Shown one piece after another: positions 10,185 through 23,036 of a DNA stretch of 24,000 bases (the stretch's first letter is position 1; each line of letters opens with the position of its first letter). Under the pieces are notes generated by a model. It did not search any database. It had not been told where the DNA came from and worked only from the letters and a program-made list of their open reading frames with translations. The translations under genes and the position numbers were made by a program. This DNA comes from Dehalococcoidia bacterium (GTDB lineage: Bacteria; Chloroflexota; Dehalococcoidia; GIF9; AB-539-J10), in assembly GCA_030612025.1 (NCBI GenBank), contig JAUWOR010000001.1, positions 151,790 through 175,789 on the forward strand, read 5' to 3'.

Positions 10185-10255
10185 TTAGGCTAATAAATAA
10201 GATTTTAGCTCAGTTAAGTTGCTAATAGACTCCTGATGGTCATCCCCTGCTCTAT
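10185..10255. repeat. Right copy of the 71-bp direct repeat (3' end of the intact HAD gene)
   Basis: See 2577-2647: 66/71 identical at a constant offset of 7608 nt. Confidence 0.85.
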
Positions 10256-10856
10256 CAATATGGAAAGCGTTTATACCCACCTGCTTGGGGTTAAGAAAAT
10301 CGAATTGCCAGTTATCGCCTACATGGACAACCTGACTTGGCTTGACATTCATCGCCTGGCACATCTGGAGATAAAAAGCGGGGGTCTTTAATTGCCTATA
10401 ATGCGAGGTTGAAGAAAAAACCTGAGTAAAATAAGGTTCCACATCCGGTAATAAATAATGCAACAGTTCCAATGGCGTGCCTGAGGCAATGATTAACTTA
10501 TATTGATTAGCTAAAGAGGAAAGGACTTCTGTTACCTCAGGATAATAGAATACTTTATCCTGGCAACTTTGTATCACTGGTTCAGGAGCGCCTAAGTGCA
10601 AATACCTAAACCAGTAGTTTATATCATACCACTCCAGCCTTTGGTCACCGATTCTATCATACTCCATAGCCACGATTTCCTTCGCCTGGACAAGCTCAAT
10701 GCCTTTCTTTTGGGCATAAATGGCTGGTATAGCCTCATGCCAAACAGCCTGACTGAAATCAGGCGTCACTAGCGTTCCTTCGGCATCAAAGGAGACTATT
10801 CTGATACACCCTGGAAAAATTCCATCTCTCAGGTGACCCCAACCAATTTGGTTCAT
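10185..10856 (-). CDS. HAD-superfamily hydrolase
   Basis: 223 aa. Motif I is IVSFDAEGTLV, where the second acidic residue is Glu rather than the usual Asp. A motif III/IV-like ...VVHVGDNWQFD is also present. Confidence 0.8.
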   Translation of the reverse strand: MNQIGWGHLRDGIFPGCIRIVSFDAEGTLVTPDFSQAVWHEAIPAIYAQKKGIELVQAKEIVAMEYDRIGDQRLEWYDINYWFRYLHLGAPEPVIQSCQDKVFYYPEVTEVLSSLANQYKLIIASGTPLELLHYLLPDVEPYFTQVFSSTSHYRQLKTPAFYLQMCQAMNVKPSQVVHVGDNWQFDFLNPKQVGINAFHIDRAGDDHQESISNLTELKSYLLA

Positions 10857-11061
10857 TTAAGTTGCTAATATTAGCATAATTAGAAGCCAGAGGTCTATTT
10901 GCTAACTTATGCTTAGCAAAGGTAAAATAGCTTGAGGGAGTTATGATGAAGGGTTTTTTGAACTTAAACCGCTTCAAACATGGCAGGGCGATAAAGCAAG
11001 GTAGTAAACAAAAGGCTAATCTGCAAGGCAAGAAGAAAGTTAAAGGAAAAGTGTTTAAACT

Positions 11062-11143
11062 GTCACCCTGAGCGCTAGCGAAGGGTCTAGATTCTTCGCG
11101 GAGCCTGTTCTGAGCGGCGTGAGATTCTTCGCTACACTCAGAA
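11062..11143. repeat. Hairpin-rich repeat module containing two GATTCTTCGC units
   Basis: GATTCTTCGC occurs at 11090-11099 and 11123-11132. A 7-bp stem TTCTGAG/CTCAGAA spans 11108-11114 and 11137-11143. A related GTAG-TAATCTTCGC-TACTAC hairpin is nested at 12176-12199. Confidence 0.4.
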
Positions 11144-11147
11144 GAGA

Positions 11148-11270
11148 CCGTTTAAAAATGTAGTTGCCTGATTTATCAGGCACAGTCGCCCAATAAATTG
11201 GGCAACTACAAAAATTTGGGGGTGAAACGCCTCTGAGATGGCTGAAATTGAACGGGGAATCAAAATTAAA
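11148..11270 (-). repeat. 123-nt structured repeat, copy A (flanks in reverse orientation, core in 'flop')
   Basis: Its reverse complement aligns base-for-base with 22831-22953 (6 mismatches in 91 flank/stem positions). The exception is the 32-nt core (11169-11200), which is identical to 22901-22932 on the SAME strand, so it is inverted relative to the flanks. The core is bounded by the 9-bp inverted repeat gtagttgcc/ggcaactac. Confidence 0.85.
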
Positions 11271-11361
11271 CAGCATGTCAGAATGACAGGAGGCGAAGGG
11301 CTCAAAATAACAAGGCCACAGGCAAAATTAAAGAGCTTCTCAGAGGAAAGGGGTAAATTTT

Positions 11362-11721
11362 GTGGCTAAGATAGATAAGCTTAGCTTTGGCTCTATAGTT
11401 ATCGATGGTAAGAAGTACTCTCAAGATGTCCTCATCTTCGCCGATGGCATGGTAAAGAAAAGAAAGGGCGGCTTTTTAATGTTTGGCAGCCACGGTATCA
11501 AAAAAGAAGAAATCGAAGAACTGGCCGAGGATAGTCCTGAGGCAGTAATCATCGGCACTGGCACTAGCGGCAAAGCCAGTTTAGCCCCTGAGGTAGAGGA
11601 CTGGGCCAAGGAAAAGAATTTGAACCTGATAGTTCAACCATCCCACAAAGCTGTAGCCAAGCTGAATGAACTTATAGAGCAGAAGAAAAAGGTTGCCGCC
11701 TTGATTCACATAACCTGCTAG
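11362..11721 (+). CDS. Mth938-domain (DUF498) protein
   Basis: GTG start with SD aggaaagggg. The sequence ...FGSIVIDGKKYSQDVLIF...AVIIGTGTSGKASLAPEV...KKVAALIHITC* matches the Mth938-like family as I recall it. Confidence 0.75.
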   Translation: MAKIDKLSFGSIVIDGKKYSQDVLIFADGMVKKRKGGFLMFGSHGIKKEEIEELAEDSPEAVIIGTGTSGKASLAPEVEDWAKEKNLNLIVQPSHKAVAKLNELIEQKKKVAALIHITC

Positions 11722-12082: not shown

Positions 12083-12233
12083 GGCCGTTTAATTTTGCCT
12101 CATCCAGTTTTAATACTCTTCACCTCCAAGATTTTCGTAGTGCGACCCTTTAGGGTCGTGCACGAGGCTACCCCGTGTAGTAATCTTCGCTACTACACAG
12201 GGCTAAAGCCTCGCACTACATTTTTAAACACCT
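12083..12233 (+). repeat. Composite GTAG...CTAC nested-hairpin element carrying a nested 30-nt hairpin insertion
   Basis: Same architecture as 22354-22445: ggc[c/t]gtttaattttgcctcatcc ... gtagtgcg-gaccctttagggtc-gtgcac-gaggctaaagcctc-gcactac-atttttaaacacc. Between 12170 and 12206 it carries an extra ccccGTGTAGTAatcttcgcTACTACACag flanked by a duplicated GGCTA. The left arm has a further ~24-nt insert. Confidence 0.8.
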
Positions 12234-18316: not shown

Positions 18317-18335
18317 TTTGGCTGCTAGGCTCAGT

Positions 18336-20006
18336 TCAGCGAGTAGCGGCTCGCTCGGCTTCAGTTACCGGCACAGCCTCCACTACAACCCTGGGAGCTC
18401 CAAGCAAGGAAAGCACTCTATCTGAAAGGTTAATATGCGGCGGCTTCAGGCTGCCCAAATCAGCACCCTCAGCCTGACGTTGAGAGATATAGCGAGCAAA
18501 AGCACCTTGAGGAAGAAAGGTAACCTCTATAGGCTTTAGGCCAAGCACAGTCTCCGGGTCACCGTAGACCCTGTATTGGTTATAGTGGTATACGCTATCC
18601 AGCTTTTGCAGTTCGCCATATACAGTTGCCGCTACAGCTTTTTCGCTGGCAATATAATTTTCCTTGAGTTCCAGATAGAGATGTAATATTGCCCCGTCTC
18701 CGATTGCTTCTTTACGGGCTGTCCAATCTTTATAAGGAATGCCGCTGTTTTCAATCGCTTCCCAAATCACTTTTTCTGTAAGACGCCCAAATCCGGAAAT
18801 ATCAATACGGTCATCAGCCCGGCTATAAAACAGCACCTGGGGGATATCAATGTTCAACTTCTCATTTCGCCGCGAAGTTATCCTTATTATATCGCCAATC
18901 CTATACCTGACAAAGGCCCCACCATGAAAATTAGTAAGAACTATCTCATAATTCTCACCCTCTTTTACTTCATCCAGTAAAATAGTTTTCGGCTGGTAAG
19001 AATGGTCTAATTGCCACTTGAAGCATTCCCCTTCAGGGATAAATTCAAAGAAGCTGAAAGTGGGGATAAAAGTCATGCCTTCGTAATCCCAGGTTTGTAT
19101 AGCACAATAGCCTCCTTCACAACTGGCATAATGCTCCAGAGGGCGTCTGCCCCATAACTCCTCCACTCTTTTCTTGAAAATTGTGGCATCACTGCCAGCG
19201 CATATTATCCCTCGCACTGCCCACAGGTCTTTGGGCAACAAAGAGCGACGAGCCAGCTTGCTCCTAACTAATCCTCTGGCTACTCGAAATAGTGCCCCGG
19301 GATGAGCTAACAAAAAACGGATGCTTATGTCTCCCGTTCCCCTCTTAATTTGCTCTCCCACATAGACTAATGCCGAGCCTAGGCCACCGAAACCATCAAG
19401 GCCACGGTATAGAGCTTCCTGGAAGCCAAGCTTTATGCACTGCTCAAAAGATAACTCTTCTCCCTGGGAAGGCAACAAGTCGCAGTTGATTGTTTCTTTT
19501 GTTAAGCAACCTAAAAAACCCGTCCCATACTCTGGAGCCCCTGTAGTATGCAACACCTTTAAGTGTTCCTTAAGCCTGGAGAGATCACCTTTACTCTTAC
19601 AGGTGGAAAAAATAATCTCGGCTACCAGCACCCTCTCTAATTCACGAACAAAACCCACCGAGAAGGGTATCCATTTAATATAGGATTTTTCCGACGTACC
19701 TGAAGTTCTCACCCATCTGGCAACCTTGGCTGGTAAGACGTCCTCCCTTCTTTCTATAAGTTCAGGGCAATAATCAGCATAGATGGTTAATGGCACCTGC
19801 TCTCGGAACTCCTCCACCGTGGTAGGCATGGCACCACGCATGACCTTCTTGCCGAGCTTACAATTTTTCAGCAGCTCAATCTGCTCCAAAAGCAACCTCT
19901 TCTGGATATTCATAAATCGCTCCAAGCTGACGTCAATAAAACCACAGCACGTCTGCCATAATTCTTCCTTTTCCCCCCGGCGTAATAACTCAATTGGCCT
20001 GGTCAT
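18336..20006 (-). CDS. GH3-family adenylate-forming enzyme (acyl acid-amido synthetase-like), paralogue B
   Basis: 556 aa. GH3/ANL motifs are WVRTSGTSEKSYIKWIP, YASCEGG and VRYRIGDIIRITS...IPQVLFYSRADD, plus a C-terminal LKPPHIN. SD aggaggtg. Confidence 0.85.
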   Translation of the reverse strand: MTRPIELLRRGEKEELWQTCCGFIDVSLERFMNIQKRLLLEQIELLKNCKLGKKVMRGAMPTTVEEFREQVPLTIYADYCPELIERREDVLPAKVARWVRTSGTSEKSYIKWIPFSVGFVRELERVLVAEIIFSTCKSKGDLSRLKEHLKVLHTTGAPEYGTGFLGCLTKETINCDLLPSQGEELSFEQCIKLGFQEALYRGLDGFGGLGSALVYVGEQIKRGTGDISIRFLLAHPGALFRVARGLVRSKLARRSLLPKDLWAVRGIICAGSDATIFKKRVEELWGRRPLEHYASCEGGYCAIQTWDYEGMTFIPTFSFFEFIPEGECFKWQLDHSYQPKTILLDEVKEGENYEIVLTNFHGGAFVRYRIGDIIRITSRRNEKLNIDIPQVLFYSRADDRIDISGFGRLTEKVIWEAIENSGIPYKDWTARKEAIGDGAILHLYLELKENYIASEKAVAATVYGELQKLDSVYHYNQYRVYGDPETVLGLKPIEVTFLPQGAFARYISQRQAEGADLGSLKPPHINLSDRVLSLLGAPRVVVEAVPVTEAERAATR

Positions 20007-20045
20007 AGCACACCTCCTATACCGTTTGCCATATTGCCATCCAGC

Positions 20046-21719
20046 TCAGCGAGCAGCGGCTCGCTCAGCTTCGGTTGTCGGCACAGCTTCCACCACAACC
20101 CTGGGAGCTCCGAGCAAGGAAAGCACTTTATCAGAGGGATTAATATGCGGCGGCTTCAGATGCCCTAAATCGGCTCCTTCAGCCTGCCGCTGGGAGATAT
20201 AGCTGGAAGAGGCACCTTGAGGAAGGAAAGTAACCTGTATCGGCTTTAGATCAAGCAGTTTTGCCGCCTCACCATAGGCAAACTTATAAAGATTGAAATT
20301 ATATATGCTATCTAATTTCTGAAACTCCTCGTACACCGCGGCTGTCACGGCTTGTTCGCTGGCGATGTAGTCATCTTTAAGCTCAAGATAGATGTGCAAT
20401 GCCGGCTTGTCACCAATTACTTCCTTACGGGCTACCCAATCGGCATAAGGAATGCCCGTGTTTTCAATCGCCTCCCAGATGAGTTTCTCAGTAATGTGGC
20501 CGAAGCCAAATATATCAATAAGTTCATCAGCTCGCCTCTCAAATACCATTTGGGGGATATCAATATTCAGCTTTTCATCTCGCAGTGAAGTTATCCTGAC
20601 CATATCACCGATTCTATATCTAACCAAGGCACCACCATGAAAATTGGTGATGACTATCTCATAATTCTCACCAGCTTTCACCTCTTCCAGCAAAACAGTC
20701 TTGGGTTGATATGAGCGGTCTAATTGCCACTTGAACCATTCCCTCTCTGGAACAAACTCATAAAAGTTAAGGCTGGGAACAAAAGTCATCCCTTCATAAT
20801 CCCAGGCCTGCATAGCACAAATACCGCCTTCTGTGCTGCTATAGATCTCGAGCGGAAATTTTCCCCAAAGTTCCTCCACCCTCTTCTTAAATACTCCTGC
20901 ATCTACGCCGCTACCCGCAATCCCTTTGATTGACCATAGGTCTTTGGGCAACATAGGACGACGAGCTAATTTGCTTTTGACTAATGCCTTTGTCACGCGG
21001 AACAGCGCCCTAGGATGAGACAACAGAGGGCGAATATTTGTCTTTCCTCTTTTCTGTTTGAACCGCTCCCCGATAGCGACTAGGACAGAGGGCAAGCCAC
21101 CGAAGACATCAATTCCTTGATACAACCCCTCCTCAAAGCCAGCTTTTATCCTCTGCTCAAAAGACATCTCTTCCCCTTTAGAAGGCAACAAATCACAACC
21201 TATAGCCTGTCGCACTAAGCAAGCCATTATACCTGATGCATACTCTGGAGGTCCCATGGTGAATAACATTCTTAAGTGCTCTTTAAGTCTGGAAGTATCA
21301 CCTCGACTGCTACAGATCCCAAGGAGAGCAAGCCCTCCGGCCACTTTTTCATATTCACGGGCAAAATCCTCCGACATAGGCACCCACTTAACATCATACT
21401 CTCCGGTCTTGCCCGAAGTACGCACCCAGTGAGCAACCTTGGCTGGCAAGACATCTTCCCTTTTCTCCACCAGCTCAGGGAGATAATCACCATAGGTGGT
21501 TAAAGGCACCTGCTCTCGAAATTCCTCCACAGTCTCGGGCATAGCCCCACGCATTACCTTCCGGCCCAACTCACAATTCTTTAATAGCTCAATTTGCTCC
21601 AGCAGCAATCGTTTCTGGATGTCCATAAACTGCTCCAAGCTGAGGTCAATAAAGCCGCAGCACATCTGCCATAGTTCCTCTTTTCTCCCCTGCCGCAGTA
21701 AATCAATCGGCCTAATCAT
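20046..21719 (-). CDS. GH3-family adenylate-forming enzyme, paralogue A
   Basis: 557 aa. Motifs are WVRTSGKTGEYDVKWVP, YSSTEGG and VRYRIGDMVRITS. SD aggaggtg. A 39-nt gap separates it from paralogue B. Confidence 0.85.
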   Translation of the reverse strand: MIRPIDLLRQGRKEELWQMCCGFIDLSLEQFMDIQKRLLLEQIELLKNCELGRKVMRGAMPETVEEFREQVPLTTYGDYLPELVEKREDVLPAKVAHWVRTSGKTGEYDVKWVPMSEDFAREYEKVAGGLALLGICSSRGDTSRLKEHLRMLFTMGPPEYASGIMACLVRQAIGCDLLPSKGEEMSFEQRIKAGFEEGLYQGIDVFGGLPSVLVAIGERFKQKRGKTNIRPLLSHPRALFRVTKALVKSKLARRPMLPKDLWSIKGIAGSGVDAGVFKKRVEELWGKFPLEIYSSTEGGICAMQAWDYEGMTFVPSLNFYEFVPEREWFKWQLDRSYQPKTVLLEEVKAGENYEIVITNFHGGALVRYRIGDMVRITSLRDEKLNIDIPQMVFERRADELIDIFGFGHITEKLIWEAIENTGIPYADWVARKEVIGDKPALHIYLELKDDYIASEQAVTAAVYEEFQKLDSIYNFNLYKFAYGEAAKLLDLKPIQVTFLPQGASSSYISQRQAEGADLGHLKPPHINPSDKVLSLLGAPRVVVEAVPTTEAERAAAR

Positions 21720-22353: not shown

Positions 22354-22445
22354 GGCTGTTTAATTTTGCCTCATCCGGATTCTCGTAGTGCGACCCTTTA
22401 GGGTCGTGCACGAGGCTAAAGCCTCGCACTACATTTTTAAACACC
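22354..22445 (+). repeat. Canonical (shortest) GTAG...CTAC two-hairpin element with arms
   Basis: ggctgtttaattttgcctcatccggattctc-GTAGTGCG-GACCCTttAGGGTC-gtgcac-GAGGCTaaAGCCTC-GCACTAC-atttttaaacacc. The outer 8-bp stem (22385-22392 with 22425-22432) is perfect. Confidence 0.85.
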
Positions 22446-22521: not shown

Positions 22522-22797
22522 CTAAGCTCCATTGCCATCCCGGAACCCGAGCACTTCCATTATACTATCTATATTCCTAAGCAGCCCCAACCCCTTGTCG
22601 GTCACCCGGTAGGTAACTATTGGGTTACCCACCTCCACTTTATTAATAAACCCATGACTCAACAGAAAACCAAGATATTTCTGTATCTGGCTGTAGCTCA
22701 TATTGGCGCTATACATAATCTCCGTTTTGCCAGCACCATTTTCGCCTACCTTGAGCATATCAGCTATTATCTCGATGTTAGACCGACGCCGATTCAT
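22522..22797 (-). CDS. Winged-helix DNA-binding protein (archaeal-type HTH_45/DUF4364-like)
   Basis: MNRRRSNIEIIADMLKV...KTEIMYSANMSYSQIQKYLGFLLSHGFINKVE...YRVTDKGLGLL matches this wHTH family as I recall it. I prefer the ATG at 22797 (SD ggag 8 nt upstream) to the GTG at 22806. Confidence 0.7.
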   Translation of the reverse strand: MNRRRSNIEIIADMLKVGENGAGKTEIMYSANMSYSQIQKYLGFLLSHGFINKVEVGNPIVTYRVTDKGLGLLRNIDSIMEVLGFRDGNGA

Positions 22798-22830
22798 TGT
22801 CACCACTCCACTCCTATCACCTATAGGCTA

Positions 22831-22953
22831 TCTAATTTTGGTTCCCCATTCAAGTTCAGCCATCTCAGAGGTGTTTCACCCCCAAATTTTTGTAGTTGCC
22901 TGATTTATCAGGCACAGTCGCCCAATAAATTGGGCACCTACATTTTTAAACGG
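22831..22953 (+). repeat. 123-nt structured repeat, copy B (core in 'flip')
   Basis: See 11148-11270. The stems are at 22892-22900 and 22933-22941 (one mismatch) and the core at 22901-22932. It lies 34-156 nt upstream of the wHTH start. Confidence 0.85.
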
Positions 22954-23036
22954 CCTTATTACTATCGTCCTATGACCATTTTACCACAGGCAGAAAAGTT
23001 GTCAATAGAACAATGTTCTACCTTGTCTAATGTGGC

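Follow-up and report, generated by a model that had tools for sequence, protein, structure and literature searches.

A rare inverted REP doublet in a Dehalococcoidia MITE is best explained as an inherited copying error at a DNA palindrome

Within a 24,000-nucleotide stretch of DNA from a Dehalococcoidia bacterium (the window), one copy of a small mobile element carries a 32-nt segment that is exactly inverted relative to its flanks. The segment is the interior of a REP doublet (REPIN) nested in a MITE. Its inverted state is best explained as a rare error made in copying a DNA palindrome and then inherited, and not as a genetic switch. The underlying event was probably a mutational hairpin-loop inversion between 10-bp inverted stems, which we infer to have arisen by a template switch during replication or by recombination within the stem. 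The window is an internal part of a 199-kb contig, and the source genome, termed G000, is a metagenome-assembled genome of 1.40 Mb (19 contigs, 95.6% complete, ~45% G+C). The relatives identified by means of the DUF498 protein encoded in the window are metagenome-assembled genomes of uncultured Dehalococcoidales or Dehalococcoidia.

A preliminary description, based only on the letters of the window, reported a 123-nt element at 11148-11270 whose reverse complement aligns with 22831-22953 with 6 mismatches across 91 flank and stem positions, and whose 32-nt core, read on one strand, is the same at both loci. Both counts were reproduced. The reverse complement of 22831-22953 differs from 11148-11270 at 20 positions, 6 of which are in the flanks and stems (11164, 11229, 11247, 11253, 11260, and 11269) and 14 in the core; read on the same strand, 11169-11200 and 22901-22932 agree at 32 of 32 positions. 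A repeat finder recovered the pair independently as a 130-nt inverted repeat (I1, 11145-11274 and 22827-22956), within which lies a 52-nt direct repeat of 98% identity (D7, 11159-11210 and 22891-22942). These comparisons confirm that the core lies exactly inverted between inverted stems.

Other parts of that description needed revision. The inverted repeat bounding the core exists, but it spans 10 bp in the first copy (TGTAGTTGCC / GGCAACTACA) and not the 9 bp reported, and the second copy has one stem mismatch (GTAGGTGCC). The two regions are indeed homologous, but the homology extends further than 123 nt, to a MITE of ~132 nt that occupies 11145-11276 and 22825-22956. Each copy is upstream of a gene and points toward it, as had been stated; the genes are a DUF498/Mth938-family gene at 11362(+) and a winged-HTH gene at 22806(-). 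The element had been taken to be present twice. The core is in fact found in ~48 copies in the genome, and a chance match is therefore excluded. Also missed was the identity of the core and stems as a REPIN that is tied to a RAYT-type transposase and nested in a MITE.

Judged by its sequence, the 52-nt unit of stems and core is a GTAG-headed REP doublet. In each REP, an imperfect palindrome with a 2-nt center follows the GTAG head: REPa reads GTAGTTGCCTGAT-TT-ATCAGGC, and REPb reads GTAGTTGCCCAAT-TT-ATTGGGC. The two are inverted and face each other across a spacer of 5-6 nt. Because a compensated change affecting two stem pairs distinguishes REPa from REPb, the orientation of a doublet can be read. 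G000 carries 45 such doublets. When folded as single-stranded DNA, the 52-nt module forms one hairpin with a free energy of -15.3 kcal/mol (z -6.8).

Two Y1-transposase genes are present in G000, both scoring above the PF01797 cut-off. The gene at C18:19629-19946(-) has a REPa/REPb doublet on both sides, and its translation contains HIH and YYEH motifs (HUH plus Tyr) and scores 46 bits against PF01797, for which the cut-off is 23. Its top NCBIfam match is REP_Tyr_transpos (REP-associated tyrosine transposase) with 69.7 bits and E 2.4e-19, under the 80-bit cut-off, and IS200 scores 37 bits. Among PDB structures, it matches the E. coli TnpA-REP protein (4ER8) with E 3.4e-5, and ISDra2 TnpA is matched similarly. 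The stop codon of the gene is the TAG contained in the GTAG head of the REP that follows it. The REPa/REPb doublet and this putative transposase gene appear to constitute a REPIN/RAYT arrangement. The 3' junction of the RAYT gene (...ATATTGTAG...; G000 region C18:19540-19950) recurs in three genomes of other genera (G035, G038, and G099). The second Y1 gene, at C4:187854-188141(-), is bordered by a different doublet, composed of REPc (GTAGTGCGAGGC...) and REPd (GTAGTGCGACCC...). A third small element, of ~24 nt (GGCCTTAATGAATGGAGGGCCAAAG), is nested in REPa together with a duplication of part of the REP at C2:43164, C4:192031, and C8:66797 of G000; it looks like a very small nested insertion.

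The carrier of the REPa/REPb doublet is a MITE of ~132 nt that lacks coding capacity and, in aligned copies, ends in 11-bp terminal inverted repeats (AGGCYGTTTAA / TTAAACRGCCT). Target duplications are 6-9 bp long. A flanking word of at least 5 nt is common to both sides of 17 of 27 copies, compared with 6.7 in shuffled pairings, and several of these words are perfect duplications of 8-10 nt. At several loci, the site occupied by the MITE is empty in relatives. In view of the empty sites and target duplications, a riboswitch or leader RNA was rejected as an interpretation of the element; an integron attC site was rejected as well, given that the copies are scattered and that their ends do not match such a site. 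No Rfam family reached its gathering score in the window, and the element itself gave only chance-level matches (E above 3); it therefore belongs to no known RNA family.

An autonomous insertion sequence with the same terminal repeats was sought in G000 (95.6% complete) among terminal repeats 0.5-3.5 kb apart, and none was found; only the RAYT region encloses a transposase. MITE frameworks without a REPIN were found neither in G000 nor, as judged with an exact pattern, in 119 genomes of the family, and the doublet therefore appears to have spread mostly as part of the MITE. The MITE occupies dozens of sites, most of them immediately ahead of ribosome-binding sites. A co-oriented ORF of at least 50 aa begins 20-33 nt past the right end in 28 of the 36 strictly matched G000 copies. 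Most of these 28 ORFs have a GGAGG-type ribosome-binding site, and the bias in position and orientation is very strong.

The MITE copy with the flipped REPIN lies at 11145-11276 on the plus strand, with its terminal inverted repeats at 11145-11155 and 11266-11276. Its doublet, in the rare order REPa-REPb, occupies 11159-11210 and has 10-bp inverted stems at 11159-11168 and 11201-11210. The inverted 32-nt interior between them (11169-11200) comprises the REPa hairpin, the spacer ACAGTC, and the REPb hairpin. The DUF498/Mth938-family gene downstream (11362-11721, plus strand; PF04430, E 5.5e-19) begins 86 nt from the MITE end. As its insertion target, this MITE used an older, unrelated small repeat (CTGTCACCCTGAGCG ... 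CGCAATGACAGG) at 11056-11296 on the plus strand, which was recognized by alignment with relatives. That older repeat has a presence/absence difference of its own, of 50-60 nt, among aligned genomes of the genus.

The copy in usual order, REPb-REPa, lies at 22825-22956 on the minus strand. It has 8 differences from the consensus, and 18 nt separate its end from the GTG start codon of the winged-HTH gene (22522-22806, minus strand; PF14947, E 4.3e-22). Its REPIN at 22891-22942 (minus strand), which was recovered by repeat finder, alignment, and folding, is the one with the stem mismatch. A sigma-70-like promoter match (TTGACA, 16 nt, TG-TAAAAT; 11 of 12 positions) is located upstream of the MITE at 22978-23005 on the minus strand. 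If this match to the consensus marks a promoter, the MITE is probably transcribed as the 5' UTR of the winged-HTH gene, between promoter and ribosome-binding site.

The window holds further repeats and genes that provide context. Two REPINs of the REPc/REPd family (GTAGTGCGAGGC / GTAGTGCGACCC) are present on the minus strand in usual order, one at 12137-12219, which contains a nested insert, and one at 22385-22432. The ten ORFs scanned around the element encode products such as HAD hydrolase, DUF498, radical SAM, winged-HTH, Mrr, and GGDEF-HD proteins. Two GH3-family genes (18332-19928 and 20042-21641; 556 and 557 aa) are adjacent tandem paralogues with 72-81% DNA identity and a period of 1713 nt. 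A 70-nt direct repeat that is 94% identical between 2578-2647 and 10186-10255 sits at or just past the 3' ends of the minus-strand ORFs 1687-2574 and 10185-10856, and a partial third copy is found at 10847-10870.

When all ~48 copies of the core in G000 are placed in the same orientation, they have the same flanks in every case but one, and the exception is the window segment 11169-11200. Because the ~47 other cores have the opposite flank order, the copy at 22825-22956 represents the usual form and that at 11145-11276 is the odd one. Tabulation of core against flank orientation over all genomic copies had been proposed as a check in the preliminary description; with matched patterns, the table for G000 has 1 flipped and 34 usual entries. 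Across the 119 genomes of the family, matched junction patterns (for the flipped form: left flank, stem, REPa ... REPb) detect 2 flipped and 156 usual junctions, counts that come from gapped, exact-match patterns in draft genomes and include related, nonindependent copies. The usual junctions are spread over 25 genomes, with 34 of them in G000.

The two flipped junctions are the window copy and a doublet at G031:C5:23967 (L034:1490-1560), whose MITE is shortened and lies immediately 5' of a ribosome-binding site. The spacer of this second doublet is different and its REPb lacks 1 nt, and its flip is therefore considered an independent event. A pattern for the right junction found no more flipped doublets in the 119 genomes; its extra matches are single-REPb palindromes or RAYT 3' ends.

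The history of the flipped copy can be read in part from its relatives. Three genomes of the genus, with flanks 84-98% identical, lack the MITE at the corresponding site ahead of the DUF498 gene. In G000, the MITE is flanked by two copies of TCAGAA (11138-11143 and 11278-11283, read directly from the sequence), and the empty site of the relatives reads TCGCAATGA (alignment A1). The framework of the flipped copy deviates from a 24-copy consensus at only 4 of ~101 positions, and the nearest copy differs from it at 3. Reverse-complementing the consensus interior yields the interior of the flipped copy exactly, and a perfect 10-bp inverted repeat bounds it. The flipped copy is thus a young member of the youngest subfamily, with a clean flip. 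Its insertion is recent, since the site is empty in the three same-genus genomes. With the site empty in the relatives, the flip may have taken place before, during, or after insertion.

The REPc/REPd family provides a second instance of the same phenomenon. Counted from the left MITE end, its doublets usually read c, d, and the 119 genomes contain 35 usual and 6 flipped matches. The unit of inversion is a 30-nt interior between 9-bp stems. The six flipped matches correspond to three loci. Locus A is flipped in G000 (C4:125561), G003, and G004, and absent from G001 and G002; locus B is flipped in G000 (C14:656) and in G003. At locus C, the G003 copy (contig C158) is flipped and its G000 orthologue (C12, ~27.06 kb) has the usual order. 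The flanks of the two locus C copies are 92% identical, and both copies have the same rare 5-nt REPc loop. G001 has an empty site, the contig of G002 stops at this point, and G004 yielded no orthologous locus.

Comparison of these orthologues shows a change of orientation in place, at least once, with the polarity of the change taken from the majority of the family. The G003 interior is not a simple reverse complement of the G000 interior. Because the REPd loop differs too, locus C needs either two events or one complex event. Taken with loci A and B, the alignments show that flips recur in unrelated doublets and that, once made, they are passed on unchanged across species. In many REPc/REPd doublets, an additional small hairpin (GTGTAGTAATCTTCGCTACTACAC) is nested in the REPc hairpin or adjoins it; examples are the window copy at 12137-12219 and the G000 copy at locus C.

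Smaller loops of the same hairpins are inverted as well. When the REP loops of G000 are read from their own GTAG heads, 105 are TT, 12 are TC, and 1 is AA, and no TA or AT intermediates are found among them. In other genomes, 4 REPb loops with AA, belonging to different subfamilies, are present among ~150 usual copies listed. At locus C, a 4-nt REPd loop is inverted in addition to the whole interior. A change from TT to AA without intermediates is the product expected of a hairpin-loop inversion, and it cannot be produced by re-insertion of a doublet.

A hairpin-loop inversion would proceed as follows. The palindrome would fold during replication, and the nascent strand would jump template at one stem arm, copy the interior off the opposite strand, and then make a return switch at the other arm. 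Alternatively, the same product would result from intramolecular recombination in the stem. The flipped state would then be passed on like any other mutation. The preliminary description had compared the arrangement with flip/flop isomers produced by hairpin-primed or template-switch replication, and had considered a very small invertible switch. Template-switch replication is retained here as the most likely mechanism; flip/flop isomers and an invertible switch are not supported, in view of the orientation counts (1:34 in G000 and 2:156 in the family), the internal position of the element, the unchanged inheritance of flipped states of a sister family across two or three species, and the shortness of the 32-bp segment.

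The sequence produced by a template switch is the same as that produced by excision and re-insertion of the REPIN or by short ectopic conversion from an inverted copy, and these alternatives must be judged on other evidence. A RAYT protein might excise the REPIN as a single-stranded hairpin and re-insert it the opposite way in the same MITE. The REPIN is symmetric in the relevant sense, with a GTAG head and hairpin at the 5' end of each strand, and G000 has an apparently intact Y1/HUH gene with the same doublets on its flanks. Against this, neither G000 nor the 119 genomes (the latter searched by exact pattern) yield a REPIN-less framework, orientation is unmixed at 156:2, and single REP loops of 2 and 4 nt, which re-insertion cannot invert, are flipped at a similarly low frequency. 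For these reasons, we rate re-insertion below a template switch and consider it unlikely; a second family with a different RAYT also shows the same phenomenon. Short ectopic conversion, or a template switch, from an inverted MITE copy elsewhere, such as the partner at 22.9 kb, would draw on dozens of donors in both chromosomal orientations, and the flipped core does equal the consensus core and matches the partner copy on the same strand. However, the homology available would be the 10-bp stems only, which is very little for an exchange between loci compared with a switch inside one folded palindrome, and flips of the small loops require no second copy. This route is therefore judged distinctly improbable. 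A large inversion between the two window copies was rejected on the reasoning that it would leave the junctions unchanged.

Two further readings deny either the flip itself or its mutational nature. An assembly or binning artefact is conceivable at a near-palindromic repeat with more than 35 near-identical MITE copies in a metagenome-assembled genome of 19 contigs. Against this, junction words of at least 12 bases (flank, stem, and first core base) distinguish the two orientations, and an assembler therefore could not yield the flip without flip-bearing reads. Moreover, a 42-kb contig of ENA assembly ERZ4220366 (coverage 17) matches the locus without a difference across 501 nt that take in the flipped doublet, so that two assemblies, which may share reads, agree on one orientation at the window locus. 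Flips of the sister family are also common to separately assembled genomes, and an artefact is highly improbable. As for a programmed invertible switch (phase variation) or hairpin-primed flip/flop isomers, perfect inverted repeats do bound the segment, which lies upstream of a gene and probably in its 5' UTR. Yet the 2:156 orientation ratio, the fixed and inherited states in the sister family, and the absence of a recombinase among the ten window ORFs scanned all argue against such a switch. The element is internal and not at a replicon terminus, and the same stems and hairpins are present in both orientations, which leaves no obvious regulatory difference. A 32-bp segment is too short to form the loop needed for inversion by a site-specific recombinase. 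We find a switch scarcely credible, and a rare hairpin-loop inversion remains the favored reading.

Because the outer stem and both small hairpins survive a hairpin-loop inversion, no large functional effect of the flip is expected. It is very unlikely, in our estimation, that the order of the REPs matters and that the flip is non-neutral, either because RAYT acts on one strand relative to replication or because the 5'-UTR RNA presents REPb first. If order did matter, a flip would toggle a copy between a RAYT-competent and a RAYT-silent state or affect how the downstream gene is expressed, and the 156:2 bias would reflect selection as well as common descent.

The window copy offers a clean, natural hairpin-loop inversion in a bacterial chromosome, and dozens of sister copies reveal its original state. 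Recurrence, stable inheritance, and one change in place are seen in a second REPIN family, which serves as an internal control. For annotators, the case illustrates that finding an exactly inverted core between inverted repeats does not count as evidence of a switch. For studies of REPINs, readable orientation allows the rate of inversion to be compared with rates of substitution and transposition.

The doublet and its transposase resemble the REPIN/RAYT systems with GTAG-tagged REP dimers described by Bertels & Rainey (PMC3116915, PMC3337134) and Di Nocera et al. (PMC3733652). Shared features are a GTAG head plus an imperfect palindrome with central TT/AA, two inverted REPs with a short spacer that form a long hairpin, dozens of extragenic copies, and a Y1/HUH transposase gene between the same REPs. 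GTAG REPs have already been reported in Chloroflexi, as have REP dimers inside larger palindromes (A. variabilis GTAG-15) (PMC3733652). The present family differs from those described in its host, which belongs to the Dehalococcoidales, in having unlike REPs that make orientation readable, and in that nearly all doublets travel in a MITE that is bounded by terminal inverted repeats and flanked by target duplications. Rare AA-TT doublets were explained by Bertels & Rainey as joined ends of neighboring doublets, not as inversions.

The MITE is similar to bacterial elements found near gene starts, including Correia/NEMIS, RUP, ERIC, and Nezha (PMC3733652), in that it is a noncoding element of ~130 nt adjacent to coding sequences, with terminal inverted repeats, target duplications, and empty sites. 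In contrast to these elements, it is built around a REP doublet of RAYT type, its placement relative to the start codon (20-33 nt ahead of it) and its orientation are very strict, and no autonomous partner was found in the 95.6% complete G000.

With regard to the flip, invertons and parvovirus-type flip/flop termini likewise have a segment between inverted repeats that occurs in two orientations. Here, by contrast, no recombinase is found among the scanned neighbors, the segment is far too short, its states are stably inherited, its position is internal rather than at the end of a replicon, and its orientations stand at 2:156 rather than being mixed or 1:1. The closer parallel is with inverted hairpin loops. 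Complete loop inversions are documented in rRNA (including bacterial rRNA) and miRNA hairpins and have been credited to inter-strand template switching (PMC8794818), short template switches have been described (PMC5453318), and plastid inversions of 5-50 bp between inverted repeats of 11-24 bp were reported by Kim & Lee (2005), as cited in PMC12928735. Like these, the inversion described here exactly reverse-complements a short segment (32 nt) between the arms of a short, perfect inverted repeat (10 bp); it is rare, recurrent, and heritable, and smaller loops of the same hairpins are inverted too. It differs from known loop inversions in that its substrate is a mobile, multicopy palindrome whose sister copies give the "before" state, and in that the inverted "loop" itself holds two hairpins. 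The REPIN and the MITE are both of known kinds, and the flip is an ordinary rare inversion and no new kind of system.
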